From Chrysomallon squamiferum (Eukaryota > Animalia > Mollusca), in assembly GCA_012295275.1 (NCBI GenBank), contig CM022665.1, positions 248,001 through 312,000 of the forward strand: a stretch of DNA of 64,000 bases. Reading direction: 5' to 3'. The translations under genes and the position numbers were made by a program. Below the pieces are notes generated by a model. The model was not told where the DNA came from and ran no database searches. It saw nothing but the letters and a program-made list of their open reading frames with translations. Shown here piece by piece: positions 3,681 through 63,430 of this stretch; the stretch's first letter is position 1, and each line of letters begins with the position of its first letter.

Positions 3681-3720
<40 letters not shown>

Positions 3721-3736
3721 TGTTTTATAATCAGAA
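3665..3736. repeat. Perfect 72-bp palindrome centred on a (TA)n tract
   Basis: ttctgattataaaacaattg-(ta)n-caattgttttataatcagaa. Confidence 0.9.
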
Positions 3737-6966: not shown

Positions 6967-7518
6967 CTGTAATTTCAGAAATATGGATAAACATAAAATG
7001 TGTAAAATTAATATCAGCTAACGTTTGTAAGAAAATAATTCTTTTTCACCTATTATATTCATGTAGTAGTCATTCAGATTATAAAAATGCACAAAATCAC
7101 AGACAGAAAAACTATTTGAAAACGAAACCAGGACATTAATGAAACTCCACGCTTATCTTTTGGGATAATTTTTAAAACCAGGAAATAAAGGAGACATTTG
7201 TCTGACTTGCAATAATTCGAAATCACTGACAAACGTTCACTAATTAAAATAAATAATAGATGTTGATGTTCGTATATTCATTGAAAGGCATGAGTGAGGT
7301 AAAATCAGGATAGGGCTCTATCAGCTACTGAAATTACTATATATCAATATTTTATAGCCGTACTAAATAATTGGATGTACAGGCAATTATTTCTTTGCTT
7401 TACAGGTATTGATTAAGAAATAAATACTTAAAAACAGGTTGTTTACCAAACAAAACATCAGTAGATTAAGTATATGACAGTGACTTTATAAGTTACGTTC
7501 AAGAAGGTGTAAAAGTAC

Positions 7519-7578
7519 CTAAAGCATGAAAGATCCTCTTTATCATCTTCACCTGCTTATCACTTAGCTCTGTAAGTT
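7519..7578 (-). CDS. Representative 60-nt symmetric exon candidate, (E)LTELSDKQVKMIKRIFHAL(G)
   Basis: CATCTTACAG acceptor with an in-frame alternative AG 9 nt downstream; weak TAG|GTACTT donor; phase 1-1; the variant unit type has an in-frame TAG. Confidence 0.4.
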
Positions 7579-13500: not shown

Positions 13501-16273
13501 TCATATAACGATATTTTTTATTTTTACTACTGTCTGTGTTCTTTCATCATCTTCCAAAATATTTAATTTAAAAAATTGTAAAAAAACAAAACAAATTAAA
13601 TTGTACATACCTTTTATTGTGCTGTTTTCAACTTCACTTAAAGTTGAACAAGTTTTGTGACACATGATTTCCGTTGTTTCATAGGTTAAACCTGTAATTT
13701 CAGAAATATGGATAAACATAAAATGTGTAAAATTAATATCAGCTAACGTTTGTAAGAAAATAATTCTTTTTTCACCTATTATATTCATGTAGTAGTCATT
13801 CAGATTATAAAAATGCACAAAATCACAGACAGAAAACTATTTGAAAACGAAACCAGGACATTAATGAAACTCCACGCTTATCTTTTGGGATAATTTTTAA
13901 AACCAGGAAATAAAGGAGACATTTGTCTGACTTGCAATAATTCGAAATCACTGACAAACGTTCACTAATTAAAATAAATAATAGATGTTGATGTTCGTAT
14001 ATTCATTGAAAGGCATGAGTGAGGTAAAAAAATCAGGATAGGGCTCTATCAGCTACTGAAATTACTATATATCAATATTTTATAGCCGTACTAAATAATT
14101 GGATGTACAGGCAATTATTTCTTTGCTTTACAGGTATTGATTAAGAAATAAATACTTAAAAACAGGTTGTTTTACCAAACAAAACATCAGTAGATTAAGT
14201 ATATGACAGTGACTTTATAAGTTACGTTCAAGAAGGTGTAAAAGTTACAAAAGCATGAAAGATCCTCTTTATCATCTTCACCTGCTTATCACTTAGCTCT
14301 GTAAGTTCTGTAAGATGAAATCAAAACAAACATTTTAAAATTAACATCTGTGAAGTGTGGTTCGTCACACTGTTATGATTTTACATTAGATATAGGCGAT
14401 GCAGTTTTCACTAATTTTGTTTTAAAGGATCAGTTATATTCGTGATTTTTCTCGCCAGTCTAGAACCGAGATTTTTGAGTTGTAAGGATGAATTGTTCTA
14501 AGCATCCACAGACGACATCGAGATAGAAATTTCAGCGTTTTTCTTTAGATGAGTACGCGTTTCACTTTCAATACAAAATGCAAAAGTGTTTCTCCGTATC
14601 TGCAAATAACTGTCAGAAACAGAGCTTACGGATCTATTAAATACTGCTCCTTTTAATAATAATAACAGTAATAAATAAACAAACAAATAAATAAAAATAA
14701 AGATTAGAAAAAAACAAAAAACAACAAAGAACTTTACGAATACCCTCAAGTCAGACATCATTACGGGAGTGACCATGCAAATTACGTTTTAATAAAACGA
14801 GCGTCACATGTTACATAAAGAATGACACTAAACAAACAAGGTTTAATCATATAACGATATTTTATTTTTTACTACTGTCTGTGTTCTTTCATCATCTTCC
14901 AAAAATATTTAATTTAAAAAATTGTAAAAAAAACAAAACAAATTAAATTGTACATACCTTTTATTGTGCTGTTTTCAACTTCACTTAAAGTTGAACAAGT
15001 TTTGTGACATGACACACATGATTTCCGTTGTTCCTTAGGTTAAACCTGTAATTTCAAAATATGGATAAACATAAAATGTTATGAAATTAATATCAGCTAA
15101 CGTTTGTAGAAAATAATTCTTTTCACCCATTATATTCATGTAGTAGTCATTCAGATTATAAAAATGCACAAAATCACAGACAGAAAAACTATTTGAAAAC
15201 GAAACCAGACATTAATGAAACTCCACGCTTATCTTTTGGGATAATTTTTAAAACCAGGAAATAAAGGAGACATTTGTCTGACTTGCAATAATTCGAAATC
15301 ACTGACAAACGTTCACTAATTAAAATAAATAATAGATGTTGATGTTCGTATATTCATTGAAAGGCATGGTGAGGGTAAAATCCGGGATAGGGCTCTATCA
15401 GCTACTGAAATTACTATATATCAATATTTTATAGCCGTACTAAATAATAATTGGATGTACAGGCAATTATTGTTTTGTTTTACATTGATTAAGAAATAAA
15501 TACTTAAAACAGGTTGTTTACCAAACAAAGGCATCAGTAGATTAAGTATATGACAGTGACTTTATAAGTTACGTTCAAGAAAGGTGTAAAAAGTACCTAA
15601 AGCATGTAAGATCCTCTTTATCATATTCACCTGCTTATCACTTAGCTCTGTAAGTTCTGTAAGATGAAATCAAAACAAACATTTTAAAATTAACATCTGT
15701 GAAGTGTGGTTCGTCACTGTTATGATTTTACATTAGATATAGGCGATGCAGTTTTTCACTAATTTTGTTTAAAAGAATCAATTATATTCATGATTTATCT
15801 CGCCAATCTAGAACCGAGATTTTGAGTTTGTAAGGATGAATTGTTCTAAGCATCCACAGACGACATCGAGATAGAAATTTCAGCGTTTTCCTTAGATGAG
15901 TACGCGTTTCACTTTCAATACAAAATGCAAAAAGTGTTTTCTCCGTATCTGCAAATAACTGTCGAAACAGGCTTACGGATCTATTAAATCTGCTCCTTTT
16001 AATAATAATAACAGTAATAAATAAACAAACAAATAAATAAAAATAAAAAGATTAGAAAAAAACAAAAACAACAAAGAACTTTACGAATACCCTCAAGTCG
16101 GACATCATTACGGAGGGTGACCAATACACAGATACGTTTTAATAAAACAGGCGTCACATTACATAAAGAATGACACTAAAACAAACGGGTTTAATCATAT
16201 AACGATATTTTATTTTTCTACTGTCTGTGTTCTTTCATCATCTTCAAAAATTTAATTTAAAAATTGTGAAAAA

Positions 16274-18479: not shown

Positions 18480-18880
18480 TACAAGCATCAATATCTATAA
18501 CCTATTTTAATTAATGAATATCACTCAGTGATTTCGAAATATTGCAAGTCAGACAAATGTCTCCCACACTTCCTTGCTTCAAAATTTATCATAAAAGGTA
18601 ATCTCGAAGTTTCATTAATGTTCTGGTTTCCTTGTCAAATAGTTTGTCTGTCTGTGACTTTGTGCATTTTTCTAATTTGAATGATTACTACATGAATATA
18701 ATAGGTGAAAAATAATTATTTTCAAATAAACGTTAGCTGATGTTAATTTTACCCATTTTATTTGAATTCATTTTTCTGAAATTACAGGTTTAACCCGTGA
18801 ACTAATGAAAATCATGCTACAGAGAACTTGTTCCCTATTAAATGCTGTTCAAAACATCACAATAGAAGTGCGTACAAAAC
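18480..18880 (+). repeat. Inverted, diverged partial copy of the 1.345-kb unit including the 81-nt cassette (18788-18868)
   Basis: cagtgatttcgaaatattgcaagtcagacaaatgtctcc is the reverse complement of the unit; cassette reads LTRELMKIMLQRTCSLLNAVQNITIE. Confidence 0.8.
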
Positions 18881-33832: not shown

Positions 33833-33864
<32 letters not shown>

Positions 33865-35842: not shown

Positions 35843-36021
35843 TTAACACAAGAAAGCTCGCACAGTGGCTTGGATTATCTCTCTACAAAGTGGACATCTT
35901 CGCAGTCTGGGCGCACAATCTTCACAGCAACAAAGGTGACCGCAGGGCAGGAAAACCATTCTGATCTTGTTTCCAAGACAAACTTTGCAGATGAGTTCCT
36001 CATTATCATCCAGCAAGGAAT
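35843..36021 (-). CDS. IAP copy C terminal exon, C3HC4 RING
   Basis: TAATAG acceptor, phase 1; CKVCLGNKIRMVFLPCGHLCCCEDCAPRLRRCPLCREIIQATVRAFLC*. Confidence 0.92.
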
Positions 36022-38312: not shown

Positions 38313-38491
38313 CTCCACTTCATTTTCATTCATGTCTTGAACCAAATCAACAAAATTGTCTCCCTTCACATGTCTGATGAAATCGCATCGTGGAAACCAT
38401 CTGGCGTGTTCCACGTAAGGGTTATCTCCCTGCATCCAATTTCTAAGTCCTCCGCCGCAGTAAAAGCAGGTTGTGCTATCACGTGAATTAC
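38313..38491 (-). CDS. Copy C exon with the second half of BIR2
   Basis: TACAG acceptor, GAG|GTAACT donor; [28 protein letters not shown]. Confidence 0.92.
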
Positions 38492-38801: not shown

Positions 38802-41800
38802 CAGAGAAGAAGAAACCGGCTTCTGCCAGTTCTGTCGGATTTTGGTTGTCAGGATGTGGCCATCGGTGTTCAAAAGACGAAATACGTCTTTGTACCTCGA
38901 CGTAATCGGAGTGACGTGCTGCATACAATTCCAGGGCTGATGTAGAGGAGCTTCCAGACAGAAAACCGGACATCTGAAGGATTGGTAAATTACTGAGACT
39001 GAGATGTGAAGAACTTTGATGAGAATCATTAGAGGCAACAGCATCACCACTGATAGAACTCTGGCCAGTAAAAGAAGGAACTGTATCATTAAAAACAAAT
39101 AAAACAGTGTTTGTAGCAAAATCAATGGTGTTAACAGCAGATGTTTCAGAGACTCCAAACAGTTCATTGTCACTAACTGAACTTTCAGACTCGCTCCGAT
39201 TACGAAGTGTTTCACTTTGAATAGCAGAAAATTCCGATACTGGTACAGATAATCTGCCCAGGAATTCTTGTAGTCTCTGCTCAGCATTCTCACTTACCCG
39301 AATCGGTTCACTTTCTTCCTCTCCCAGGACAAATCTGCATCTTGGAGAGATCTGTCTGTGAATTTCACTTGGCTTATCTCCAGGTCTCCAGTGATCATAG
39401 CTCTGACCACAGCTGAAGCAGACAACGCGATCATCAGACCCAGTAAAGTAGAATCCAGCAGCTGCAAGATGACTTGGCCAGGCTGAGGTTAGAGGAAATC
39501 GTAAGTAAGACGCATATCGGTCCCACTCCCTCCTGTATCTGACAGTGTCTGAATGTTCTGTTCCCAATTCATCATTTCTCAACTGTTCTCTCTCATTACG
39601 TCTCAACTGTTCTCTGTCATCACTTCTCAACTGTTCTGTCTGATTACTTCTCAACTGTTCTGTCTCATCACTTTTCAACTGTTCTGTCTCATCACATCTC
39701 AACTGTTCTGTCTTATCACATCCCATCTGTTCTCTCTGACCACTTCTCAACTGTTCTGTCTCATTACCTCTCAACTGTTCTGTCTCATCACATCTCAACT
39801 GTTCTGTCTCACCACTTCTCAACTGTTCTCTCTCATCACTTCTCAAATCTTTTGTCGTATCACTTCTCAACTGTTCTGTCTCCTCACTTCTCAACTGTTC
39901 TGTCTCCTCACTTCTCAACTGTTCTGTCTCATCACTTCTCAACTCTTTTGTCGTATCACTTGTCAACTGTTCTGTCTCATAACTTCTCAGCTGTTCTCTC
40001 TCATCACTTCTCAACTGTTCTGTCTGATCACTTCTCAACTGTTCTATCTCACTACTTCTCAACTGTTCTGTCTCATCACTTCTCAACTGTTCTGTCTCAC
40101 CACTTCTCAACTGTTGTGTCTCATCAATTCTCAACTGTTCTGTCTCATCACTTCTCAATCGTTCTGTCTCATCACTTCTGAAGTCTTTTGTCGTATCACT
40201 TGTCAACTGTTCTGTCTCATCACTTCTCAACTGTTCTGTCTCATCACTTCTCAACTGTTCTGTCTCATCACTTCTGAACTGTTCTTTCTCATCACTTCTC
40301 AACTGTTCTGTCTCATCACTTCTCAACTGTTCTATCTCATCACTTCTCAGCTGTTCTCTCTCATCACTTCTCAACTGTTCTGTCTCACCACTTCTCAACT
40401 CTTTTGTCGTATCACTTTTCAGCTGTTCTGTCTCATCACTTCTGAACTGTTCTATCTCATCACTTCTCAACTGTTCTATCTCACGACTTCTGAACTGTTC
40501 TCTCTCAACACTTCTCAGCTGTTCTGTCTGATCACTTCTCAACTGTTCTGTCTCACGACTTCTGAACTGTTCTCTCTCAACACTTCTCAGCTGTTCTGTC
40601 AAACAACTTCTCAACTGTTCTGTCTTATCACTTCTCATCTGTTCTATCTCACTACTTCTCAGCTGTTCTATCTCACCACTTCTCAGCTGTTCTCTCTCAT
40701 CACTTCTCAACTGTTCTGTCTCACCACTTCTCAACTCTTTTGTCGTATCACTTTTCAGCTGTTCTGTCTCATCACTTCTGAACTGTTCTCTCTCAACACT
40801 TCTCAGCTGTTCTGCCTCATCACTTCTCAACTGTTCTGTCTCATCACTTCTCGACTGTTCTGTCTCATGACTTCTCAGCTGTTCTGTATCTTCACTTCTC
40901 AACTGTTCTGTCTGATCACTTCTCAACTGTTCTATCTCACTACTTCTCAACTGTTCTGTCTCATCACTTCTCAACTGTTCTGTCTCACCACTTCTCAACT
41001 GTTGTGTCTCATCAATTCTCAACTGTTCTGTCTCATCACTTCTGAAGTCTTTTGTCGTATCACTTGTCAACTGTTCTGTCTCATCACTTCTCAACTGTTC
41101 TGTCTCATCACTTCTCAACTGTTCTGTCTCATCACTTCTGAACTGTTCTTTCTCATCACTTCTCAACTGTTCTGTCTTATCACTTCTCAACTGTTCTATC
41201 TCATCACTTCTCAACTGTTCTATCTCATCACTTCTCAGCTGTTCTCTCTCATCACTTCTCAACTGTTCTGTCTCACCACTTCTCAACTCTTTTGTCGTAT
41301 CACTTTTCAGCTGTTCTGTCTCATCACTTCTGAACTGTTCTATCTCATCACTTCTCAACTGTTCTATCTCACGACTTCTGAACTGTTCTCTCTCAACACT
41401 TCTCAGCTGTTCTGTCTGATCACTTCTCAACTGTTCTGTCTCACGACTTCTGAACTGTTCTCTCTCAACACTTCTCAACTGTTCTATCTCATCACTTCTC
41501 AACTGTTCTATCTCATCACTTCTCAGCTGTTCTCTCTCATCACTTCTGAACTGTTCTATCTCAACACTTCTCAACTGTTCTATCTCATCACTTCTCAACT
41601 GTTCTATCTCACGACTTCTGAACTGTTCTCTCTCAACACTTCTCAGCTGTTCTGTCTGATCACTTCTCAACTGTTCTCTCTCACGACTTCTGAACTGTTC
41701 TCTCTCAACACTTCTCAGCTGTTCTGTCTCACAACTTCTCAACTGTTCTGTCTTATCACTTCTCATCTGTTCTATCTCACTACTTCTCAGCTGTTCTATC

Positions 41801-44800
41801 TCACCACTTCTCAGCTGTTCTCTCTCATCACTTCTCAACTGTTCTGTCTCACCACTTCTCAACTGTTCTGCCTCATCACTTCTCAAATGTTCTGTCTCAT
41901 CACTTCTCAACTGTTCTGTCTCATCACTTCTCAACTGTTCTGTCTCTTCACTTCTCAACTGTTCTGTCTCATCACTTCTCAAATGTTCTATCTCATCACT
42001 TCTCAACTGTTCTGTCTCATCACTTCTCACCTGTTCTGTCTCATCACTTCTCAACTGTTCTGTCTCACCACTTCTCAACTGTTCTGTCTCACCACTTCTC
42101 AGCTGTTCTGTCTCATCACTTCTCAACTGTTCTGTCTCATCACTTCTCAACTCTTTTGTCGTATCACTTTTCAGCTGTTCTGTCTCATCACTTCTGAACT
42201 GTTCTATCTCATCACTTCTGAACTGTTCTATCTCACGACTTCTGAACTGTTCTGTCTTATCACTTCTCATCTGTTCTATCTCACTACTTCTCAGCTGTTC
42301 TATCTCACCACTTCTCAGCTGTTCTCTCTCACCACTTCTCAAATGTTCTATCTCACTACTTCTCAGCTGTTCTATCTCACCACTTCTCAGCTGTTCTCTC
42401 TCAGCACTTCTCAAATGTTCTATCTCAGTACTTCTCAAATGTTTTGTCGTATCACTTGTCAACTGTTCTGTCTCACCACTTCTCAACTGTTCTGTTTCAC
42501 CACTTCTCAACTGTTCTGTCTCACCACTTCTCAGCTGTTCTGTCTCATCACTTCTCAAATGTTCTGTCTCATCACTTCTCAACTGTTCTGTCTCATCACT
42601 TCTCAACTGTTCTGTCTCTTCACTTCTCAACTGTTCTGTCTCATCACTTCTCAACTGTTCTATCTCATCACTTCTCAACTGTTCTATCTCATCACTTCTC
42701 ACCTGTTCTGTCTCATCACTTCTCAACTGTTCTGTCTCACCACTTCTCAACTGTTCTGTCTCACCACTTCTCAGCTGTTCTGTCTCATCACTTTTCAACT
42801 GTTCTGTCTCATCACTTCTCAACTCTTTTGTCGTATCACTTTTCAGCTGTTCTGTCTCATCACTTCTGAACTGTTCTATCTCATCACTTCTGAACTGTTC
42901 TATCTCACGACTTCTGAACTGTTCTCTCTCAACACTTCTCAGCTGTTCTGCCTCATCACTTCTCAACTGTTCTGTCTCATCACTTCTCGACTGTTCTGTC
43001 TCATGACTTCTCAGCTGTTCTGTATCTTCACTTCTCAACTGTTCTGTCTGATCACTTCTCAACTGTTCTATCTCACTACTTCTCAACTGTTCTGTCTCAT
43101 CACTTCTCAACTGTTCTGTCTCACCACTTCTCAACTGTTGTGTCTCATCAATTCTCAACTGTTCTGTCTCATCACTTCTGAAGTCTTTTGTCGTATCACT
43201 TGTCAACTGTTCTGTCTCATCACTTCTCAACTGTTCTGTCTCATCACTTCTCAACTGTTCTGTCTCATCACTTCTGAACTGTTCTTTCTCATCACTTCTC
43301 AACTGTTCTGTCTTATCACTTCTCAACTGTTCTATCTCATCACTTCTCAACTGTTCTATCTCATCACTTCTCAGCTGTTCTCTCTCATCACTTCTCAACT
43401 GTTCTGTCTCACCACTTCTCAACTCTTTTGTCGTATCACTTTTCAGCTGTTCTGTCTCATCACTTCTGAACTGTTCTATCTCATCACTTCTCAACTGTTC
43501 TATCTCACGACTTCTGAACTGTTCTCTCTCAACACTTCTCAGCTGTTCTGTCTGATCACTTCTCAACTGTTCTGTCTCACGACTTCTGAACTGTTCTCTC
43601 TCAACACTTCTCAACTGTTCTATCTCATCACTTCTCAACTGTTCTATCTCATCACTTCTCAGCTGTTCTCTCTCATCACTTCTGAACTGTTCTATCTCAA
43701 CACTTCTCAACTGTTCTATCTCATCACTTCTCAACTGTTCTATCTCACGACTTCTGAACTGTTCTCTCTCAACACTCTCTCAGCTGTTCTGTCTGATCAC
43801 TTCTCAACTGTTCTCTCTCACGACTTCTGAACTGTTCTCTCAACTGTTCTCAGCTGTTCTGTCTCACAACTTCTCAACTGTTCTGTCTTATCACTTCTCA
43901 TCTGTTCTATCTCACTACTTCTCAGCTGTTCTATCTCACCACTTCTCAGCTGTTCTCTCTCATCACTTCTCAACTGTTCTGTCTCACCACTTCTCAACTG
44001 TTCTGCCTCATCACTTCTCAAATGTTCTGTCTCATCACTTCTCAACTGTTCTGTCTCATCACTTCTCAACTGTTCTGTCTCTTCACTTCTCAACTGTTCT
44101 GTCTCATCACTTCTCAAATGTTCTATCTCATCACTTCTCAACTGTTCTATCTCATCACTTCTCACCTGTTCTGTCTCATCACTTCTCAACTGTTCTGTCT
44201 CACCACTTCTCAACTGTTCTGTCTCACCACTTCTCAGCTGTTCTGTCTCATCACTTCTCAACTGTTCTGTCTCATCACTTCTCAACTCTTTTGTCGTATC
44301 ACTTTTCAGCTGTTCTGTCTCATCACTTCTGAACTGTTCTATCTCATCACTTCTGAACTGTTCTATCTCACGACTTCTGAACTGTTCTGTCTTATCACTT
44401 CTCATCTGTTCTATCTCACTACTTCTCAGCTGTTCTATCTCACCACTTCTCAGCTGTTCTCTCTCACCACTTCTCAAATGTTCTATCTCACTACTTCTCA
44501 AATGTTTTGTCGTATCACTTGTCAACTGTTCTGTCTCACCACTTCTCAACTGTTCTGTTTCACCACTTCTCAACTGTTCTGTCTCACCACTTCTCAGCTG
44601 TTCTGTCTCATCACTTCTCAAATGTTCTGTCTCATCACTTCTCAACTGTTCTGTCTCATCACTTCTCAACTGTTCTGTCTCTTCACTTCTCAACTGTTCT
44701 GTCTCATCACTTCTCAACTGTTCTATCTCATCACTTCTCAACTGTTCTATCTCATCACTTCTCACCTGTTCTGTCTCATCACTTCTCAACTGTTCTGTCT

Positions 44801-45490
44801 CACCACTTCTCAACTGTTCTGTCTCACCACTTCTCAGCTGTTCTGTCTCATCACTTCTCAACTGTTCTATCTCATCACTTCTCAACTGTTCTATCTCATC
44901 ACTTCTCACCTGTTCTGTCTCATCACTTCTCAACTGTTCTGTCTCACCACTTCTCAACTGTTCTGTCTCACCACTTCTCAGCTGTTCTGTCTCATCACTT
45001 CTCAACTGTTCTGTCTCATCACTTCTCAACTCTTTTGTCGTATCACTTTTCAGCTGTTCTGTCTCATCACTTCTGAACTGTTCTATCTCATCACTTCTGA
45101 ACTGTTCTATCTCACGACTTCTGAACTGTTCTCTCTCAACACTTCTCAGCTGTTCTGCCTCATCACTTCTCAACTGTTCTGTCTCATCACTTCTCGACTG
45201 TTCTGTCTCATGACTTCTCAGCTGTTCTGTATCTTCACTTCTCAACTGTTCTGTATCTTCACGTCTCAACTGTTCTGTCTCATCACTTCTCAGTTGTTCT
45301 CTCTCATCACCTCTCAGCTGTTCTGTATCTTCACTTCTCAACTGTTCTGTCTTATCACTTCTCAGCTGTTGTCTCTCATCACCTCTCAGCTGTTCTGTAT
45401 CTTCACTTCTCAGCTGTTCTGTATCTTCACTTCTCACCTGTTCTGTCTCATCACTTCTCACCTGTTCTGTCTCATTACTTCTCAGCTGTT
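38802..45490 (-). CDS. Copy C giant exon (about 6.69 kb): about 246 x 8-aa charged repeat, intact BIR1, first half of BIR2
   Basis: ORFs 38797..43734 and 43818..45461; ATCACAG acceptor at 45491-45492, G|GTTAGT donor; 6689 nt, one base short of a multiple of 3, matching the +1 and -2 indels at 43775-43845; VVCFSCG..H..C intact. Confidence 0.85.
39575..45490 (-). repeat. 24-bp coding minisatellite (plus-strand consensus cacttctcaactgttctgtctcat) with higher-order blocks
   Basis: Direct reading; rare variant ctgttgtgtctcatcaattc at 40111, 40999, 43135. Confidence 0.98.
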
Positions 45491-45906: not shown

Positions 45907-45945
45907 CTGCTTCAATCAGCATCTTATACATTTCCATATCTAGGC
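45907..45945 (-). CDS. 39-nt symmetric micro-exon candidate, (G)LDMEMYKMLIEA; could also supply the start codon
   Basis: TTTCTGAAATGACAG acceptor, CAG|GTATGT donor, phase 1-1, in frame with the giant exon. Confidence 0.5.
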
Positions 45946-48199: not shown

Positions 48200-51100
48200 A
48201 ATTCGAAATCACTGACAAACATTCACTAATTAAAATAAACAATAGATGTTGATGTTCGTATATTAATTGAAAGGTATGAGTGAGGTAAAATCAGGGTAGG
48301 GTCCTGCAGTTTTCACTAATTTTGTTTAAAAGGATCAGTTATATTCGTGATTTTTCTCGCCAATCTAGAACCGAGATTTTGAGTTGTAAGGATGAATTGT
48401 TCTAAGCATCCACAGACGACATCGAGATAGAAATTTCAGCGTTTTCCTTAGATGAGTACGCGTTTCACTTTCAATACAAAATGCAAAAAGTGTTTCTCCG
48501 TATCTGCAAATAACTGTCAGAAACAGAGCTTACGGATCTATTAAATACTGCTCCTTTTAATAATAATAACGGTAATAAATAAACAAACAAATAAATAAAA
48601 ATAAAGATTAGAAAAAAAAAAAAAACAACAAGAACTTTACGAATACCCTCAAGTCAGACATCATTACGGAGGGTGACCATGCAAATTACGTTTTAATAAA
48701 ACGAGCGTCACATGTTACATAAAGAATGACACTAAACAAACAAGGTTTAATCATATAACGATATTTTTATTTTTACTACTGTCTGTGTTCTTTCATTATC
48801 TTCCAAAAATATTTAATTTAAAAAATTGTAAAAAAACAAAACAAATTAAATTGTACATACCTTTTATTGTGTTGTTTTCAACTTCATTTAAAGTTGAACA
48901 AGTTTTGTGTACAATGATTTCCGTTGTTTCATAGGTTAAATCTGTAATTTCAGAAATATAGATAAACATAAAATGTGTAAAATTAATATCAGCTAACGTT
49001 TGTAAGAAAATAATTCTTTTTCACCTATTATATTCATGTAGTAGTCATTCAGATTATAAAATGCACAAAATCACAGACAGAAAAACTATTTGAAAACGAA
49101 ACCAGGACATTAATGAAACTCCACGCTTATCTTTTGGGATAATTTTTAAAACCAGGAAATAAAGGAGACATTTGTCTGACTTGCAATAATTCGAAATCAC
49201 TGACAAACGTTCACTAATTAAAATAAATAATAGATGTTGATGTTCGTATATTCATTGAAAGGCATGAGTGAGGTAAAATCAGGATAGGGCTCTATCAGCT
49301 ACTGAAATTACTATATATCAATATTTTATAGCCGTACTAAATAATTGGATGTACAGGCAATTATTTCTTTGCTTTACAGGTATTGATTAAGAAATAAATA
49401 CTTAAAAACAGGTTGTTTACCAAACAAAACATCAGTAGATTAAGTATATGACAGTGACTTTATAAGTTACGTTCAAGAAGGTGTAAAAGTACCTAAAGAC
49501 ATGAAAGATCCTCTTTATCATCTTCACCTGCTTATCACTTAGCTCTGTAAGTTCTGTAAGATGAAATCAAAACAAACATTTTAAAATTAACATCTGTGAA
49601 GTGTGGTTCGTCACACTGTTATGATTTTACATTAGATATAGGCGATGCAGTTTTCACTAATTTTGTTTAAAAAGGATCAGTTATATTCGTGATTTTTCTC
49701 GCCAATCTAGAACCGAGATTTTGAGTTGTAAGGATGAATTGTTCTAAGCATCCACAGACGACATCGAGATAGAAATTTCAGCGTTTTCCTTAGATGAGTA
49801 CGCGTTTCACTTTCAATACAAAATGCAAAAAGTGTTTCTCCATATCTGCAAATAACTGTCAGAAACAGAGCTTACGGATCTATTAAATACTGCTCCTTTT
49901 AATAATAATAACAGTAATAAATAAACAAACAAATAAATAAAAATAAAGATTAGAAAAAAACAAAAAAACAACAAGAACTTTACGAATACCCTCAAGTCAG
50001 ACATCATTACGGAGGGTGACCATGCAAATTACGTTTTAATAAAACGAGCGTCACATGTTACATAAAGAATGACACTAAACAAACAAGGTTTAATCATATA
50101 ACGATATTTTTATTTTTTACTACTGTCTGTGTTCTTTCATCATCTTCCAAAAATATTTAATTTAAAAAATTGTAAAAAAACAAAACAAATTAAATTGTAC
50201 ATACCTTTTATTGTGTTGTTTTCAACTTCATTTAAAGTTGAACAAGTTTTGTGTACAATGATTTCCGTTGTTTCATAGGTTAAATCTGTAATTTCAGAAA
50301 TATGGATAAACATAAAATGTGTAAAATTAATATCAGCTAACGTTTGTAAGAAAATAATTCTTTTTCACCTATTATATTCATGTAGTAGTCATTCAGATTA
50401 TAAAAATGCACAAAATCACAGACAGAAAAACTATTTGAAAACGAAACCAGGACATTAATGAAACTCCACGCTTATCTTTTGGGATAATTTTTAAAACCAG
50501 GAAATAAAGGAGACATTTGTCTGACTTGCAATAATTCGAAATCACTGACAAACGTTCACTAATTAAAATAAATAATAGATGTTGATGTTCGTATATTCAT
50601 TGAAAGGCATGAGTGAGGTAAAATCAGGGTAGGGTCCTGTCAGCTACTGAAAATACGATAAATCAATATAATATTGCCATACTAAATAACTGGATGTATA
50701 CACAATTATATCTTTACTTCACAGGCATTGTTTTGAAACAAAACAAAAAAATAAAAGTAATAATAGTTGTTTACCAAAGAAAAGTAAACAACATTAAATA
50801 TATGACAATCGCTTTATAAGGTACGCTCAACAAGGTGTAAAAATACCTGGTGACTGAATAATCCTTTTTATCATGTTCACCTACTTATTATTTAGCTCTG
50901 TAAGTTCAGTAAGATAAGATTACAATGAACATATTAAAATTAACATCTGTGAAGTGTGGCTCTTCACACTGTTATGATTTTACATTAGAAACAGGTGTTG
51001 CAGTTCATGGTTTAAAACTGTAATTTCAGAATTATAAATAAATATAGAATGCGAAAAATTAACATCAGCTTACATATATAAGATAACAATTATTATCATG

Positions 51101-54100
51101 TAATGATATATTTAGTTTATTAATACTTTCTGTGTTCTTTCATTATCTTTCAAAAATTATTAAATTTACAAAATTATATATAAAAAAAAAGAAATTAAAT
51201 CGCACGCACCTTTTATTTTGATATGTTGAACTGTATTAAATGTTGAACGAGATTTCAGAGGCATGATTTTCGTTAGTTCATTGGTTAAACCTGTAATTTC
51301 CGAAAATGTATAAAATTAACATCAATTTATGTTTATCAGAAAATAATTGAACTATTATATTCATGTAGTAGTCATTCAGATTATAAAAATGCACAAAGTC
51401 ACAGACAGATAAACTATTTGAAAACTATTTGTCTGTGTTCTTTCATCATCTTCCAAAAATATTTAATTTAAAAAATTGTAAAAAAAACAAAACAAATTAA
51501 ATTGTACATACCTTTTATTGTGCTGTTTTCAACTTCATTTAAAGTTGAACAAGTTTTGTGACACATGATTTCCGTTGTTTCATAGGTTAAACCTGTAATT
51601 TCAGAAATATGGATAAACATAAAATGTGTAAAATTAATATCAGCTAACGTTTGTAAGAAAATAATTCTTTTTCACCTATTATATTCATGTAGTAGTCATT
51701 CAGATTATAAAAATGCACAAAATCACAGACAGAAAAACTATTTGAAAACGAAACCAGGACATTAATGAAACTCCACGCTTATCTTTTGGGATAATTTTTA
51801 AAACCAGGAAATAAAGGAGACATTTGTCTGACTTGCAATAATTCGAAATCACTGACAAACGTTCACTAATTAAAATAAATAATAGATGTTGATGTTCGTA
51901 TATTCATTGAAAGGCATGAGTGAGGTAAAATCAGGGTAGGGTCCTGTCAGCTACTGAAAATACGATAAATCAATATAATATTGCCATACTAAATAACTGG
52001 ATGTATACACAATTATATCTTTACTTCACAGGCATTGTTTTGAAACAAAACAAAAAAATAAAAGTAATAATAGTTGTTTACCAAAGAAAAGTAAACAACA
52101 TTAAATATATGACAATCGCTTTATAAGGTACGCTCAACAAGGTGTAAAAATACCTGGTGACTGAATAATCCTTTTTATCATGTTCACCTACTTATTATTT
52201 AGCTCTGTAAGTTCAGTAAGATAAGATTACATTGAACATATTAAAATTAACATCTGTGAAGTATGGTTCGTCACACTGTTATGATTTTACATTAGATATA
52301 GGCGATGCAGTTTTCACTAATTTTGTTTAAAAGGATCAGTTATATTCGTGATTTTTCTCGCCAATCTAGAACCGAGATTTTGAGTTGTAAGGATGAATTG
52401 TTCTAAGCATCCACAGACGACATCGAGATAGAAATTTCAGCGTTTTCCTTAGATGAGTACGCGTTTCACTTTCAATACAAAATGCAAAAAGTGTTTCTCC
52501 GTATCTGCAAATAACTGTCAGAAACAGAGCTTACGGATCTATTAAATACTGCTCCTTTTAATAATAATAACAGTAATAAATAAACAAACAAATAAATAAA
52601 AATAAAGATTAGAAAAAAACACAAAAACAACAAGAACTTTACGAATACCCTCAAGTCAGACATCATTACGGAGGGTGACCATGCAAATTACGTTTTAATA
52701 AAACGAGCGTCACATGTTACATAAAGAATGACACTAAACAAACAAGGTTTAATCATATAACGATATTTTTATTTTTTACTACTGTCTGTGTTCTTTCATC
52801 ATCTTCCAAAAATATTTAATTTAAAAAATTGTAAAAAAACAAAACAAATTAAATTGTACATACCTTTTATTGTGCTGTTTTCAACTTCATTTAAAGTTGA
52901 ACAAGTTTTGTGACACATGATTTCCGTTGTTTCATAGGTTAAACCTGTAATTTCAGAAATATGGATAAACATAAAATGTGTAAAATTAATATCAGCTAAC
53001 GTTTGTAAGAAAATAATTCTTTTTCACCTATTATATTCATGTAGTAGTCATTCAGATTATAAAAATGCACAAAATCACAGACAGAAAAACTATTTGAAAA
53101 CGAAACCAGGACATTAATGAAACTCCACGCTTATCTTTTGGGATAATTTTTAAAACCAGGAAATAAAGGAGACATTTGTCTGACTTGCAATAATTCGAAA
53201 TCACTGACAAACGTTCACTAATTAAAATAAATAATAGATGTTGATGTTCGTATATTCATTGAAAGGCATGAGTGAGGTAAAATCAGGATAGGGCTCTATC
53301 AGCTACTGAAATTACTATATATCAATATTTTATAGCCGTACTAAATAATTGGATGTACAGGCAATTATTTCTTTGCTTTACAGGTATTGATTAAGAAATA
53401 AATACTTAAAAACAGGTTGTTTACCAAACAAAACATCAGTAGATTAAGTATATGACAGTGACTTTATAAGTTACGTTCAAGAAGGTGTAAAAAAGTACCT
53501 AAAGCATGAAAGATCCTCTTTATCATCTTCACCTGCTTATCACTTAGCTCTGTAAGTTCTGTAAGATGAAATCAAAACAAACATTTTAAAATTAACATCT
53601 GTGAAGTGTGGTTCGTCACACTGTTATGATTTTACATTAGATATAGGCGATGCAGTTTTCACTAATTTTGTTTTAAAAGGATCAGTTATATTCGTGATTT
53701 TTCTCGCCAATCTAGAACCGAGATTTTGAGTTGTAAGGATGAATTGTTCTAAGCATCCACAGACGACATCGAGATAGAAATTTCAGCGTTTTCCTTAGAT
53801 GAGTACGCGTTTCACTTTCAATACAAAATGCAAAAGTGTTTCTCCGTATCTGCAAATAACTGTCAGAAACAGAGCTTACGGATCTATTAAATACTGCTCC
53901 TTTTAATAATAATAACAGTAATAAATAAACAAACAAATAAATAAAAATAAAGATTAGAAAAAAACACAAAAACAACAAGAACTTTACGAATACCCTCAAG
54001 TCAGACATCATTACGGAGGGTGACCATGCAAATTACGTTTTAATAAAACGAGCGTCACATGTTACATAAAGAATGACACTAAACAAACAAGGTTTAATCA

Positions 54101-57100
54101 TATAACGATATTTTTATTTTTTTACTACTGTCTGTGTTCTTTCATCATCTTCCAAAAATATTTAATTTAAAAAATTTGTAAAAAAAAAAAAACAAATTAA
54201 ATTGTACATACCTTTTATTGTGCTGTTTTCAACTTCATTTAAAGTTGAACAAGTTTTGTGACACATGATTTCCGTTGTTTCATAGGTTAAACCTGTAATT
54301 TCAGAAATATGGATAAACATAAAATGTGTAAAATTAATATCAGCTAACGTTTGTAAGAAAATAATTCTTTTTCACCTATTATATTCATGTAGTAGTCATT
54401 CAGATTATAAAATGCACAAAATCACAGACAGAAAAACTATTTGAAAACGAAACCAGGACATTAATGAAACTCCACGCTTATCTTTTGGGATAATTTTTAA
54501 AACCAGGAAATAAAGGAGACATTTGTCTGACTTGCAATAATTCGAAATCACTGACAAACGTTCACTAATTAAAATAAATAATAGATGTTGATGTTCGTAT
54601 ATTCATTGAAAGGCATGAGTGAGGTAAAATCAGGATAGGGCTCTATCAGCTACTGAAATTACTATATATCAATATTTTATAGCCGTACTAAATAATTGGA
54701 TGTACAGGCAATTATTTCTTTGCTTTTACAGGTATTGATTAAGAAATAAATACTTAAAAACAGGTTGTTTACCAAACAAAACATCAGTAGATTAAGTATA
54801 TGACAGTGACTTTATAAGTTACGTTCAAGAAGGTGTAAAAGTACCTAAAGCATGAAAGATCCTCTTTATCATCTTCACCTGCTTATCACTTAGCTCTGTA
54901 AGTTCTGTAAGATGAAATCAAAACAAACATTTTAAAATTAACATCTGTGAAGTGTGGTTCGTCACACTGTTATGATTTTACATTAGATATAGGCGATGCA
55001 GTTTTCACTAATTTTGTTTAAAAGGATCAGTTATATTCGTGATTTTTCTCGCCAATCTAGAACCGAGATTTTGAGTTGTAAGGATGAATTGTTCTAAGCA
55101 TCCACAGACGACATCGAGATAGAAATTTCAGCGTTTTCCTTAGATGAGTACGCGTTTCACTTTCAATACAAAATGCAAAAGTGTTTCTCCGTATCTGCAA
55201 ATAACTGTCAGAAACAGAGCTTACGGATCTATTAAATACTGCTCCTTTTAATAATAATAACAGTAATAAATAAACAAACAAATAAATAAAAATAAAGATT
55301 AGAAAAAAACACAAAAACAACAAGAACTTTACGAATACCCTCAAGTCAGACATCATTACGGAGGGTGACCATGCAAATTACGTTTTAATAAAACGAGCGT
55401 CACATGTTACATAAAGAATGACACTAAACAAACAAGGTTTAATCATATAACGATATTTTTATTTTTTTACTACTGTCTGTGTTCTTTCATCATCTTCCAA
55501 AAATATTTAATTTAAAAATTGTAAAAAAAAAAAAAAACAAATTAAATTGTACATACCTTTTATTGTGCTGTTTTCAACTTCATTTAAAGTTGAACAAGTT
55601 TTGTGACACATGATTTCCGTTGTTTCATAGGTTAAACCTGTAATTTCAGAAATATGGATAAACATAAAATGTGTAAAATTAATATCAGCTAACGTTTGTA
55701 AGAAAATAATTCTTTTTCACCTATTATATTCATGTAGTAGTCATTCAGATTATAAAAATGCACAAAATCACAGACAGAAAAACTATTTGAAAACGAAACC
55801 AGGACATTAATGAAACTCCACGCTTATCTTTTGGGATAATTTTTAAAACCAGGAAATAAAGGAGACATTTGTCTGACTTGCAATAATTCGAAATCACTGA
55901 CAAACGTTCACTAATTAAAATAAATAATAGATGTTGATGTTCGTATATTCATTGAAAGGCATGAGTGAGGTAAAAATCAGGATAGGGCTCTATCAGCTAC
56001 TGAAATTACTATATATCAATATTTTATAGCCGTACTAAATAATTGGATGTACAGGCAATTATTTCTTTGCTTTACAGGTATTGATTAAGAAATAAATACT
56101 TAAAAACAGGTTGTTTACCAAACAAAACATCAGTAGATTAAGTATATGACAGTGACTTTATAAGTTACGTTCAAGAAGGTGTAAAAGTACCTAAAGCATG
56201 AAAGATCCTCTTTATCATCTTCACCTGCTTATCACTTAGCTCTGTAAGTTCTGTAAGATGAAATCAAAACAAACATTTTAAAATTAACATCTGTGAAGTG
56301 TGGTTCGTCACACTGTTATGATTTTACATTAGATATAGGCGATGCAGTTTTCACTAATTTTGTTTAAAAGGATCAGTTATATTCGTGATTTTTCTCGCCA
56401 ATCTAGAACCGAGATTTTGAGTTGTAAGGATGAATTGTTCTAAGCATCCACAGACGACATCGAGATAGAAATTTCAGCGTTTTCCTTAGATGAGTACGCG
56501 TTTCACTTTCAATACAAAATGCAAAAAGTGTTTCTCCGTATCTGCAAATAACTGTCAGAAACAGAGCTTACGGATCTATTAAATACTGCTCCTTTTAATA
56601 ATAATAACAGTAATAAATAAACAAACAAATAAATAAAAATAAAGATTAGAAAAAAACAAAAAAACAACAAGAACTTTACGAATACCCTCAAGTCAGACAT
56701 CATTACGGAGGGTGACCATGCAAATTACGTTTTAATAAAACGAGCGTCACATGTTACATAAAGAATGACACTAAACAAACAAGGTTTAATCATATAACGA
56801 TATTTTTATTTTTTACTACTGTCTGTGTTCTTTCATCATCTTCCAAAAATATTTAATTTAAAAAATTGTAAAAAAAACAAAACAAATTAAATTGTACATA
56901 CCTTTTATTGTGCTGTTTTCAACTTCATTTAAAGTTGAACAAGTTTTGTGACACATGATTTCCGTTGTTTCATAGGTTAAACCTGTAATTTCAGAAATAT
57001 GGATAAACATAAAATGTGTAAAATTAATATCAGCTAACGTTTGTAAGAAAATAATTCTTTTTCACCTATTATATTCATGTAGTAGTCATTCAGATTATAA

Positions 57101-60100
57101 AAATGCACAAAATCACAGACAGAAAAACTATTTGAAAACGAAACCAGGACATTAATGAAACTCCACGCTTATCTTTTGGGATAATTTTTAAAACCAGGAA
57201 ATAAAGGAGACATTTGTCTGACTTGCAATAATTCGAAATCACTGACAAACGTTCACTAATTAAAATAAATAATAGATGTTGATGTTCGTATATTCATTGA
57301 AAGGCATGAGTGAGGTAAAATCAGGATAGGGCTCTATCAGCTACTGAAATTACTATATATCAATATTTTATAGCCGTACTAAATAATTGGATGAACAGGC
57401 AATTATTTCTTTGCTTTTACAGGTATTGATTAAGAAATAAATACTTAAAAACAGGTTGTTTACCAAACAAAACATCAGTAGATTAAGTATATGACAGTGA
57501 CTTTATAAGTTACGTTCAAGAAGGTGTAAAAGTACCTAAAGCATGAAAGATCCTCTTTATCATCTTCACCTGCTTATCACTTAGCTCTGTAAGTTCTGTA
57601 AGATGAAATCAAAACAAACATTTTAAAATTAACATCTGTGAAGTGTGGTTCGTCACACTGTTATGATTTTACATTAGATATAGGCGATGCAGTTTTCACT
57701 AATTTTGTTTAAAAGGATCAGTTATATTCGTGATTTTTCTCGCCAGTCTAGAACCGAGATTTTGAGTTGTAAGGATGAATTGTTCTAAGCATCCACAGAC
57801 GACATCGAGATAGAAATTTCAGCGTTTTCCTTAGATGAGTACGCGTTTCACTTTCAATACAAAATGCAAAAGTGTTTCTCCGTATCTGCAAATAACTGTC
57901 AGAAACAGAGCTTACGGATCTATTAAATACTGCTCCTTTTAATAATAATAACAGTAATAAATAAACAAACAAATAAATAAAAATAAAGATTAGAAAAAAA
58001 CAAAAAAAACAACAAGAACTTTACGAATACCCTCAAGTCAGACATCATTACGGAGGGTGACCATGCAAATTACGTTTTAATAAAACGAGCGTCACATGTT
58101 ACATAAAGAATGACACTAAACAAACAAGGTTTAATCATATAACGATATTTTTATTTTTACTACTGTCTGTGTTCTTTCATCATCTTCCAAAAATATTTAA
58201 TTTAAAAAATTGTAAAAAAACAAAACAAATTAAATTGTACATACCTTTTATTGTGCTGTTTTCAACTTCACTTAAAGTTGAACAAGTTTTGTGACACATG
58301 ATTTCCGTTGTTTCATAGGTTAAACCTGTAATTTCAGAAATATGGATAAACATAAAATGTGTAAAATTAATATCAGCTAACGTTTGTAAGAAAATAATTC
58401 TTTTTTTCACCTATTATATTCATGTAGTAGTCATTCAGATTATAAAAATGCACAAAATCACAGACAGAAAAACTATTTGAAAACGAAACCAGGGGACATT
58501 AATGAAACTCCACGCTTATCTTTTGGGATAATTTTTAAAACCAGGAAATAAAGGAGACATTTGTCTGACTTGCAATAATTCGAAATCACTGACAAACGTT
58601 CACTAATTAAAATAAATAATAGATGTTGATGTTCGTATATTCATTGAAAGGCATGAGTGAGGTAAAATCAGGATAGGGCTCTATCAGCTACTGAAATTAC
58701 TATATATCAATATTTTATAGCCGTACTAAATAATTGGATGTACAGGCAATTATTTCTTTGCTTTACAGGTATTGATTAAGAAATAAATACTTAAAACAGG
58801 TTGTTTACCAAACAAAACATCAGTAGATTAAGTATATGACAGTGACTTTATAAGTTACGTTCAAGAAGGTGTAAAAGTACCTAAAGCATGTAAGATCCTC
58901 TTTATCATCTTCACCTGCTTATCACTTAGCTCTGTAAGTTCTGTAAGATGAAATCAAAACAAACATTTTAAAATTAACATCTGTGAAGTGTGGTTCGTCA
59001 CACTGTTATGATTTTACATTAGATATAGGCGATGCAGTTTTCACTAATTTTGTTTAAAAGGATCAGTTATATTCGTGATTTTTCTCGCCAATCTAGAACC
59101 GAGATTTTGAGTTGTAAGGATGAATTGTTCTAAGCATCCACAGACGACATCGAGATAGAAATTTCAGCGTTTTCCTCAGATGAGTACGCGTTTCACTTTC
59201 AATACAAAATGCAAAAAGTGTTTCTCCGTATCTGCAAATAACTGTCAGAAACAGAGCTTACGGATCTATTAAATACTGCTCCTTTTAATAATAATAACAG
59301 TAATAAATAAACAAACAAATAAATAAAAATAAAGATTAGAAAAAAACAAAAAAACAACAAGAACTTTACGAATACCCTCAAGTCAGACATCATTACGGAG
59401 GGTGACCATGCAAATTACGTTTTAATAAAACGAGCGTCACATGTTACATAAAGAATGACACTAAACAAACAAGGTTTAATCATATAACGATATTTTTTAT
59501 TTTTTACTACTGTCTGTGTTCTTTCATCATCTTCCAAAAATATTTAATTTAAAAAATTGTAAAAAAAACAAAACAAATTAAATTGTACATACCTTTTATT
59601 GTGCTGTTTTCAACTTCATTTAAAGTTGAACAAGTTTTGTGACACATGATTTCCGTTGTTTCATAGGTTAAACCTGTAATTTCAGAAATATGGATAAACA
59701 TAAAATGTGTAAAATTAATATCAGCTAACGTTTGTAAGAAAATAATTCTTTTTCACCTATTATATTCATGTAGTAGTCATTCAGATTATAAAAATGCACA
59801 AAATCACAGACAGAAAAACTATTTGAAAACGAAACCAGGACATTAATGAAACTCCACGCTTATCTTTTGGGATAATTTTTAAAACCAGGAAATAAAGGAG
59901 ACATTTGTCTGACTTGCAATAATTCGAAATCACTGACAAACGTTCACTAATTAAAATAAATAATAGATGTTGATGTTCGTATATTCATTGAAAGGCATGA
60001 GTGAGGTAAAATCAGGATAGGGCTCCTATCAGCTACTGAAAATACTATATATCAATATTTTATAGCCATACTAAATAATTGGATGTACAGGCAATTATTT

Positions 60101-61720
60101 CTTTTGCTTTACAGGTATTGATTAAACAAATAAAAAAATACTTAAAAATAGGTTGTTTACCAAACAAAACATCAGTAGATTAAATATATGACAGTGACTT
60201 TATAAGTTACGTTCAAGAAGGTGTAAAAATACCTAAAGACTGAATAATCCTTTTATCATCTTCACCTGCTTATCATTTAGCACTATAAGTTCTGTAAGAT
60301 GAAATCAAAATAAACATATTAAAATTAAAATCTGTGAAGTGTGGTTCGTCACACTGTTATGATTTTACATTAGATATAGGCGATGCAGTTTTCACTAATT
60401 TTGTTTAAAAGGATCAGTTATATTTGTGATTTTTCTCGCCAATCTAGAACCGAGATTTTGAGTTGTAAGGATGAATTGTTCTAAGCATCCACAGACGACA
60501 TCGAGATAGAAATTTCAGCGTTTTCCTTAGATGAGTACGCGTTTCACTTTCAATACAAAATGCAAAAGTGTTTCTCCGTATCTGCAAATAACTGTCAGAA
60601 ACAGAGCTTACGGATCTATTAAATACTGCTCCTTTTAATAATAATAACAGTAATAAATAAACAAACAAATAAATAAAAATAAAGATTAGAAAAAAACACA
60701 AAAACAACAAGAACTTTACGAATACCCTCAAGTCAGACATCATTACGGAGGGTGACCATGCAAATTACGTTTTAATAAAACGAGCGTCACATGTTACATA
60801 AAGAATGACACTAAACAAACAAGGTTTAATCATATAACGATATTTTTATTTTTTTACTACTGTCTGTGTTCTTTCATCATCTTCCAAAAATATTTAATTT
60901 AAAAAAATGTAAAAAAACAAAACAAATTAAATTGTACATACCTTTTATTGTGCTGTTTTCAACTTTTTAAAGTTGAACAAGTTTTGTGACACATGATTTC
61001 CGTTGTTTCATAGGTTAAACCTGTAATTTCAGAAATATGGATAAACATAAAATGTGTAAAATTAATATCAGCTAACGTTTGTAAGAAAATAATTCTTTTT
61101 TCACCTATTATATTCATGTAGTAGTCATTCAGATTATAAAAATGCACAAAATCACAGACAGAAAATCTATTTGAAAACGAAACCAGGACATTAATGAAAC
61201 TCCACGCTTATCTTTTGGGATAATTTTTAAAACCAGGAAATAAAGGAGACATTTGTCTGACTTGCAATAATTCGAAATCACTGACAAACGTTCACTAATT
61301 AAAATAAATAATAGATGTTGATGTTCGTATATTCATTGAAAGGCATGAGTGAGGTAAAATCAGGGTAGGGTCCTGTCAGCTACTGAAAATACGATAAATC
61401 AATATAATATTGCCATACTAAATAACTGGATGTATACACAATTATATCTTTACTTCACAGGCATTGTTTTGAAACAAAACAAAAAATTTAAGTAATAATA
61501 GTTGTTTACCAAAGAAAAGTAAACAACATTAAATATATGACAATCGCTTTATAAGGTACGCTCAACAAGGTGTAAAAATACCTGATGACTGAATAATCCT
61601 TTTTATCATGTTCACCTACTTATTATTTAGCTCTGTAAGTTCAGTAAGATAAGATTACAATGAACATTTTAAAATTAACATCTGTGAAGTGTGGCTCTTC
61701 ACACTGTTATGATTTTACGT
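48200..61720 (-). repeat. Tandem array 2 of the 1.345-kb exon-bearing unit (10 near-identical cassettes plus one diverged)
   Basis: 81-nt cassette with low coordinates 48861, 50205, 51512, 52864, 54212, 55557, 56902, 58245, 59593, 60942 (the last is 79 nt); diverged copy at 51210. Confidence 0.95.
51210..51290 (-). CDS. Diverged 81-nt exon cassette, (G)LTNELTKIMPLKSRSTFNTVQHIKIK(G)
   Basis: ATTACAG acceptor, AAG|GTGCGT donor; same length and open frame despite many substitutions. Confidence 0.6.
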
Positions 61721-61960
61721 TAGAAATATTTGATGCATTTTATGAAATGTCTTAATATATTGATGATTCATCTCGTGATCTGGAGACGATATTTTGTTTT
61801 CTAAAACACCACGCAGAAATTAATACTTCTTAAAATTTACGTGTTCATGATTTTACTGCTCATTATTTCACTGTGTATTATCTCACATACAGATAAATAA
61901 ACTTTGACATAAAACTGAAGTAGCAAAGGTTAATATAAGAAACATTTCTGTGTTACTTAC

Positions 61961-62027
61961 GAGGTTCTATAAATAGATTTAAGTCTGTCTTCATTCTTTC
62001 TGACTCTGTTGATTTCCGTTTGTTCAT
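61961..62027 (-). CDS. Candidate start-codon exon of copy C (MNKRKSTESERMKTDLNLFIEP)
   Basis: ATTACAG acceptor at 62037-62038, ACCCATG, open frame ending in phase 1 at a GTAAGT donor. Confidence 0.4.
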
Positions 62028-62726
62028 GGGTTAAACCTGTAATTTCAGAAATATAGATGAACATAAAATGATTTTACGTTAGAAATATGTGATGTATTTT
62101 TCAGTAATTTTATGAAATGCATTAATATATTGATGATTCATATCTTGATCTGGAGACTGTTTTCTAAAACACCACGAAGAAATTAATACTTCTGATAATC
62201 TACGTTTTCATGATTGTACTGCTCATTTACATTTAATGCGTATTATCCCAGATACAAATAAATAAAGTGTGATGTTATCAGACATAAAACTGAAGTAACA
62301 AAGGTTAATATAAGGAAAATCTCTGTTACGCACCAGACTGCTCTATAAATAGATTCAAGTTTCTCTTCATTCTTTCTGACTGTGTCTTTTACTTTGACAA
62401 TTTAAGCAGTTTCTAAATTTAAATAAATTTAATTTGAGTATAATTATTAATAAAACACTGGAACGTGTTAAATTTGTAGACAAACTGATTCTATATTGAT
62501 TACTGACCTCAAGAAATAAAATAACATGTACTATACATGTAGTCTGATGTAAGTATGAACTTTACCAAAGTTTAATCTGATAACATTCAGTCAATCAATT
62601 AAAACATCAAACAAAATGTTGTGTTCTTTCATCACAGTTAAGAAATCATTAAACTAACAAATTTATCTTTTACAGAACTACTAATGTTTATTCAAATCTA
62701 GCTACTACCACTGCAGGCAGTTAAGT

Positions 62727-63273: not shown

Positions 63274-63430
63274 ACTTACCCAAATTCCTAATCAAATTAT
63301 TTCTGTAAAGAACGACCCAAACACATCAATATGTTAAAAAGAGAAAACAAAACATACAGGTCGTCTCTGCGTGGTAACGATCACGTGACTCAAATTACGT
63401 GTACAAAGTGACATAAACATGGCGACTTTC
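63274..63430 (-). promoter_or_regulatory. Putative promoter and non-coding first exon of copy C
   Basis: GG|GTAAGT donor at 63279-63274; TCACGTGA 63381-63388 overlapping TGACTCA 63386-63392; TACGTG 63396-63401; AACATGGCG YY1-like; homologous to 20441-20600. Confidence 0.5.

Follow-up and report, generated by a model that had tools for sequence, protein, structure and literature searches.

A satellite-like 1.345-kb repeat in Chrysomallon squamiferum is an array of spliced, frame-neutral exons within an inhibitor-of-apoptosis gene cluster

Exon-bearing tandem repeats and the C. squamiferum locus

Genomic tandem repeats that carry exons are known from three systems: (i) the SmPoMuc mucins of Schistosoma mansoni, in which ~1-kb exon-bearing repeats with flanking introns occupied the 5' part of the gene, were >93% identical within a member as well as across the family, and displayed concerted evolution, aberrant splicing, and assembly trouble (PMC2576457); (ii) LPA KIV-2, with two exons and two introns per 5.5-kb unit in 1 to >40 near-identical copies (PMC4378929); and (iii) NBPF Olduvai (DUF1220), built of exon doublets in tandem, the first exon being small, with sub-types and an expansion of recent date (PMC9313022). 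The window analyzed here was a 64-kb stretch of AT-rich animal DNA from Chrysomallon squamiferum contig CM022665.1, whose minus strand harbored a tandem cluster of inhibitor of apoptosis (IAP) genes and fragments (all features below lie on the minus strand unless marked otherwise). A 'satellite'-like 1.345-kb repeat in this window was a spliced exon array, each unit containing exons A (81 nt) and B (60 nt), both of phase 1-1.

Compared to SmPoMuc, the first array of the window (array 1) likewise had exon-bearing, roughly kilobase-long tandem units in a 5' gene part, near-identical across the family, but SmPoMuc had one 27-nt exon per unit, microsatellite separation, and a mucin product, while array 1 had 60 + 81 nt and a BIR/RING protein as its likely host (PMC2576457). 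LPA KIV-2 was also built of two exons per near-identical tandem unit, but it encoded a folded kringle, and its 160- and 182-nt exons were by simple arithmetic not individually frame-neutral, while A and B were (PMC4378929). Olduvai differed as a primate family with a 52-nt plus a larger exon and higher-order triplets (PMC9313022). The array works like the repeats of these three systems and is not homologous to them. An initial annotation of this DNA had named no described IAP with this architecture. The architecture itself is known from SmPoMuc, LPA KIV-2, and Olduvai, but no IAP with an N-terminal exon array was described in the literature searched, where coverage of subscription papers was thin.

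IAP diversity has been ascribed to BIR and RING number and to UBA and death-like domains, both in a 2026 survey of 2,843 IAPs (PMC13159474) and for oyster IAPs (PMC8917759); the parts of these two sources consulted made no mention of an N-terminal exon array, and their supplementary architecture tables may bear on it. The molluscan two-BIR/RING IAPs of both sources resembled the C. squamiferum gene in their tandem clustering, BIR1 within one exon, BIR2 spread over two, and C-terminal RING. Repeat masking would conceal a kilobase-sized 'satellite' of this kind, which here was a spliced, frame-neutral exon array; if its link to the BIR exon is true, it would represent a route of IAP diversification absent from surveys that count BIR, RING, UBA, and death-like domains, as far as the parts consulted go.

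Two-exon unit: structure, splicing, and divergence

Array 1 (48305..61741) contained ten units of 1.345 kb with two exons apiece, together with a single diverged A. The type copies were exon A LTYETTEIMCHKTCSTLNEVENSTIK (56902..56982; 81 nt) and exon B LTELSDKQVKMIKRIFHAL (57536..57595; 60 nt), and both ends of each coincided with RNA-contig joints; A and B were stop-free in the phase-1 frame only. Intact exons amounted to 10/11 A-type and 5/10 B-type, with 6/21 broken. Further intact A copies started at 59673, 58325, 55637, 54292, 52944, and 51592, further intact B copies started at 58940, 56250, 54904, and 53558, and the two 3'-most A (starts 50285 and 48941) were variant copies with six changes. 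The defective exons were of three kinds: (i) a 79-nt exon A containing a stop (60942..61020); (ii) frame-shifted exon B copies of 59 nt (60233..60291) and 61 nt (49553-49493); and (iii) the B' type (52154..52204, 61632-61582, 50897-50847, and 10263-10213), in which all four copies contained an in-frame stop and the same four had lost the upstream AG used in RNA, a coincidence that fits skipping of B'. Array 2 (5959..16273), belonging to a paralogous IAP, had 6/7 A and 7/9 B intact, a B count that takes in a variant B at 5678-5619, and it ended at an N gap.

The initial annotation had read each unit as an acceptor motif, 81 stop-free nt, and GTATGT, and this was found in 9/10 near-identical units (48.3-61.7 kb); the 60942 copy was indeed 79 nt long (61020-60942). 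The diverged exon A at 51210..51290, as claimed, kept 81 nt, frame, and AG/GT despite differing at 19/81 nt. The inverted exon A relic (18788..18868, plus strand) was open over 81 nt, as claimed, but its GT was displaced by one base, and the donor would give 80 nt. The single-cassette unit did not survive: the unit was a B+A pair, whose second exon had only been hinted at by a junction k-mer. The chance that a 60+81-nt loop is both symmetric and stop-free in some frame was 0.5-0.9% by shuffling, a post hoc figure.

The 47-residue B+A module contained two Cys and two His, with an isoelectric point of 6.1. Neither exon A nor exon B gave a Pfam match above the cut-off, and nothing in PDB was better than E 2 for exon A; the below-cut-off Pfam match of A to ICAM_N (E 0.024) and its PDB matches at E ~2 were taken as chance. 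Exon A together with its flanks had no match in protein searches, which is weak evidence, and a metagenome scan gave 0 matches with the exon A pattern and two distant loci with the BIR part. Three other identities were rejected: a ribozyme satellite or retrozyme (the window gave 0 Rfam matches at gathering score, hammerhead included), a miniature inverted-repeat transposable element (one near-complete unit lacked clear terminal repeats), and homology of exon A to N-termini from Gigantopelta aegis (one comparison, P0005, E 7.5). Exon B was flanked by 24-nt inverted arms (57215-57238 and 58021-58044; 75% complementary), which could favor skipping and could equally be chance.

Words of the BIR stretch were present in five sequencing runs, four recorded as RNA from a single study and one of unrecorded kind (X5); the fractions of 0.25-0.36 of these words are not counted as support for the array-BIR link. 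Contigs of RNA runs X1, X2, and X4 and of X5 were compared with one unit, 56890-57900, at 85% likeness. A joint that connected B to A across 553 skipped nt, with minus-strand GT..AG ends, was found in 3/3 RNA runs, in one contig per run with a short side of 26 letters, and an A-to-B go-back joint (57595/56902) was found in X2 (three contigs) and X4 (two contigs), with loose ends in X1. One A-type-to-A-type joint was also present in X2. The X5 contigs on this unit displayed neither the B-A nor the A-B joint, and X5, covering introns and exons alike, behaves like DNA; the exon/intron contig depth ratios of 5.2, 19.3, and 7.8 (RNA) and 0.8 (X5) are in line with the joints but are not counted, as contig depth cannot rank gene parts. 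Exon B in RNA used the upstream AG, giving 60 nt.

B-A and A-B being the common joints, the simplest default product is B-A-B-A, an alternating 47-codon repeat rather than free single cassettes. Splicing of any subset of cassettes, as first proposed, was accordingly narrowed to these joints, with skipping indicated by the A-A joint of X2 and by the need to bypass broken exons. Tandem exons are a source of isoform diversity, and Dscam picks one cassette per cluster; the array exons, in contrast, were joined successively to each other, with a circle possible for the go-back joint.

The RNA also contained exon versions beyond those of the window. Three diverged A-type 5' pieces had the exact expected length, two following B and one following an A-type 3' end (X2); by hand they read STHELTEKLPQ, LTDELMEINL, and LTHESTEIIL, in place of LTYETTEIMCH in the window. 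Among the 23 loose ends listed of 87, those lying at an exon edge gave three more A-type starts (e.g., TYELTEIMPE) and one B-type start, and all seven of these hand-read pieces were stop-free in the same frame. Among 12 of the 18 RNA-contig indels, 11 were intronic and the sole exonic one was 3 nt, and two RNA-contig records matched window exon A with 0 other letters.

The main-type units differed by 0.1-1.3% within and between both arrays, a near-identity to which polishing could add, while the second unit type (B'), present in both arrays, was 5-6% different. A column comparison covered 11/18 units (leaving aside the B' types and three others, of which one was a mosaic, one was rich in indels, and one was partial) and gave 10/141 variable columns in exons versus 24/1204 in introns (Fisher p=0.0017, a test weakened if three adjacent exon changes were one event); among these units, introns were more homogenized than exons. 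Near-identical copies (15 of A, 12 of B) displayed eight codon changes, 8/8 of them non-synonymous, and one exon B change coincided with a damaged donor. The variant A at 50285 differed at 6/81 positions versus 0 substitutions in 600 flanking nt, and the diverged copies differed at 19/81 and 20/81 exon positions versus 31/222 and 49/315 in their flanks (p=0.055 and 0.07). Judged by sequence, the frame is kept across the diverged copies and the residues are not conserved. Distinct indels among the window units (indel-rich unit left out) fell on 3/141 exon and 40/1204 intron positions. The locus is a compact example of exons whose encoded residues diverge inside introns kept uniform by concerted evolution, a pattern seen so far mainly in host-parasite surface proteins and structural repeats.

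Relation of array 1 to the downstream IAP gene

Pfam detected PF00653 downstream of array 1 (E 1.1e-25, two stretches; E 5.5e-13 in the next exon) together with PF13920 (E 9.4e-15), and by these BIR and RING matches the gene 3' of array 1 is a two-BIR/RING IAP; it is the likely host of the array. Its predicted exons were (i) a large exon (38802..45490) with a phase-1 acceptor at 45490, containing BIR1 and the first half of BIR2; (ii) the second half of BIR2 (38313..38491; PF00653 E 5.5e-13); (iii) linker exons at 38054-37976, 37793-37716, and 36727-36653, the last two being symmetric duplicates; and (iv) the RING exon (35843..36021; PF13920 E 9.4e-15). The large exon carried ~247 copies of a 24-nt coding repeat (eight residues, acidic/basic; 39569-45494), in which there were internal block duplications of 230-624 nt. 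The nearest full-length-like relatives were Gigantopelta aegis IAPs (~35% identity over 94-96% of the query), which had a low-complexity Ser-rich repeat before BIR1, in the same place as the 24-nt repeat but of different sequence. The linker between BIR2 and RING (37793-36653) comprised three tandem copies of a symmetric 75-78-nt exon, the middle of which (37602-37525) had lost its donor, and copies related to this exon were located near 33609-33819.

On the 5' side, a candidate start-codon exon (61961..62036), with its ATG at 62027, a phase-1 donor, and a 5' half derived from exon A, preceded the array, and a second hand-read candidate (62334..62379) in a 79% duplicate block had its ATG in the same frame as 62036-61961 and likewise a phase-1 donor. 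The array thus lay, as initially described, between a candidate ATG exon ending in phase 1 (donor after 61961) and the phase-1 BIR-exon acceptor at 45490. Further upstream, a candidate 23-nt 5' untranslated region (UTR) exon (63280..63302; AG..GTAAGT) kept its length and GT in two copies at 20.2-20.6 kb. The initial annotation had taken exon 1 to lie at about 63280; the 23-nt exon there has its own acceptor and is probably a second UTR exon behind the donor at 63357 of a likely upstream exon ending at 63358. The whole 5' exon block of 63.2-63.5 kb was kept at 20.2-20.6 kb in the same orientation. Between array 1 and the BIR exon, a candidate 39-nt phase 1-1 exon (45907..45945) followed an A-type acceptor block. 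Such ~170-nt intron blocks ending in an A-type acceptor preceded short exon candidates at 45677, 45945, 47869, 51017, 62036, and 4806, and it looks as if the block could itself be a duplicated module.

Two paralogs on one strand had the same succession of 5' exon block, array, and BIR exon. In the paralog downstream of array 2, an open frame with the BIR exon (1314..3800) contained a different, 30-nt coding repeat, and Tyr replaced the second Cys of CxxC in its BIR1. A candidate 46-nt exon of phase 1-2 (4806-4761) would suit the phase-2 acceptor at 3666. The initial claim of a cassette array in an IAP gene was upheld in that the exons were real, in frame, and spliced in RNA at the predicted AG/GT, with the flanking order kept in two paralogs.

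On balance, array 1 is probably included in the IAP mRNA and translated as a variable-length N-terminal run of 47-residue modules, a reading favored because phases match from the ATG exon to the BIR exon and because the array position is shared by two paralogs. Joined to the 16 intact internal exons, the ATG exon gave 405 stop-free codons with a phase-1 end matching the acceptor phase of the BIR exon. The two-exon units, spliced B-A-B-A, would supply the 5' coding sequence of the two-BIR/RING IAP that follows them, and translation would proceed from the phase-1 ATG exon through ~400 residues of modules into the very long 8-residue repeat, BIR1, BIR2, and RING. The frame would be safe under unit gain, loss, or swap, since A and B are each of phase 1-1; by analogy with SmPoMuc (PMC2576457), unequal crossing-over and gene conversion may add, drop, and swap units, also between paralogs, leaving the frame unshifted and the introns homogenized. 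Dead exons (B' and the 79-, 59-, and 61-nt copies) would be skipped, would partly be assembly errors, or would yield truncated transcripts. N-terminal leaders of insect IAPs govern stability, and the modules might, speculatively, act as a tunable, fast-evolving leader altering IAP stability or binding partners with the BIR/RING core untouched. It is possible, though doubtful, that a genome-wide pool of frame-neutral A/B exons, diversifying in protein sequence as the introns are homogenized, is dealt to tandem gastropod IAP paralogs by conversion, copy-number change, and skipping, giving a hypervariable combinatorial N-terminus; diversification in the style of mucins or antigens would then act on an intracellular apoptosis regulator, possibly shaped by symbionts or pathogens.

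Several observations weigh against inclusion and translation of the array in the IAP. As to the gene model, the frame stopped at codon 27 when no exon was skipped, two changes of frame, one near 43849 and one near 43764, left the BIR exon as assembled with a net break, and the 5' block of Paralog 4 was severed from its array by an inversion and an N gap. As to the RNA, the runs were three samples from a single study, and their contigs cannot separate array 1, array 2, and copies elsewhere; the short side of the B-A joint, 26 letters at 85% likeness, falls within the flagged range (<30 letters); the go-back A-B joint could also be a circle; and the X2 loose end after exon B had 0 matches to its sequence in the window, so that B-type exons elsewhere join other exons. 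As to selection, besides the weakening of the Fisher test, purifying selection on A was sought and none was seen (pN, non-synonymous, at least equal to pS, synonymous, in 3/3 comparisons of diverged A with the type copy), and 3/3 exon indels were frame-breaking at a rate not clearly below that of introns. The initial expectation that cassettes would be spared frameshifts relative to their flanks was therefore not cleanly borne out, the exons being no more conserved than the flanks. The frame was open for 556 codons of the large exon before the 43.76-43.85 kb break and then for 1855 codons from 43779 to the RING stop; as 9/9 of the sister repeat blocks listed differed from the broken block by the same two gaps, the sequence suggests a consensus error or a recent lesion.

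The RNA joints, all from unit 56890-57900, contained none from the array to exon 1, the ATG exon, or the BIR exon, and exon B joined an exon absent from the window; the many RNA variant exons and the deep, flat cover of X5 hint at many genomic copies, although depth gives no copy number. These features would suit a separate transcript family of small repeat proteins or spliced non-coding RNA that ends before the BIR exon, with the IAP starting independently, and the seven AATAAA counted over the 3370 nt that separate array 1 from the BIR exon, at about the window background rate, can be placed on the same side. Such a family is nevertheless unlikely: array position and strand were the same in two paralogs, phases matched from the ATG exon to the BIR exon, the interval between the array and the BIR exon contained no identified stop-bearing terminal exon, just another phase 1-1 candidate, and related snail IAPs too have long N-terminal extensions ahead of BIR1.

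Both exons were symmetric and open in a single compatible frame (the 0.5-0.9% chance given above), the diverged spliced variants kept length and frame in 7/7 pieces read, and each diverged A copy had ~28% chance of staying open under random change, all of which make it quite improbable that the exons serve in the IAP mRNA as an upstream-open-reading-frame or poison-exon leader damping expression, with the start Met inside the large exon. This alternative would account for the stop at codon 27 in the no-skip chain, the 6/21 broken exons of array 1, the out-of-frame ATG in every A, the in-frame Mets before BIR1, and the lack of visible purifying selection on residues.

Least probable is a decaying or mis-assembled locus in which sister loci are the source of the spliced RNA and the assembly itself is partly responsible for array 2 or for the number of units, as might be read from the BIR-exon frame break, the first three array exons being broken, the N gap and indel-rich last unit at the end of array 2, the intermixing of units of both arrays at 0.1-1.3%, and the Tyr in the paralog BIR1, but the break consisted of two small indels lacking in 9/9 sister blocks listed, as a consensus error predicts, RNA contigs matched window exon A exactly, and flanks and BIR exons differed between the arrays.

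Neighboring elements in the window

Beside the N gap at the end of array 2, an inverted block (16608-18877, plus strand) contained sequence like that of 63736-64000 together with the exon A relic and its upstream intron. Additional IAP fragments were found at 29895-35619, including a partial duplicate from BIR2 to RING (35.6-33.4 kb) and, at 31.4-30.0 kb, a BIR1 exon that had a frame change and was not preceded by an array. Broken frames at 32040-33268 resemble fragments of a long interspersed nuclear element (LINE), and two frames from this region gave no Pfam match above the cut-off. The last exon of an aromatic amino-acid hydroxylase (23813-24040; PF00351 E 2.1e-10) was located inside the IAP cluster. 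Short tandem arrays were present at 17653-18044 (193-nt unit, two copies) and 28145-28664 (141-nt unit, 3.7 copies).

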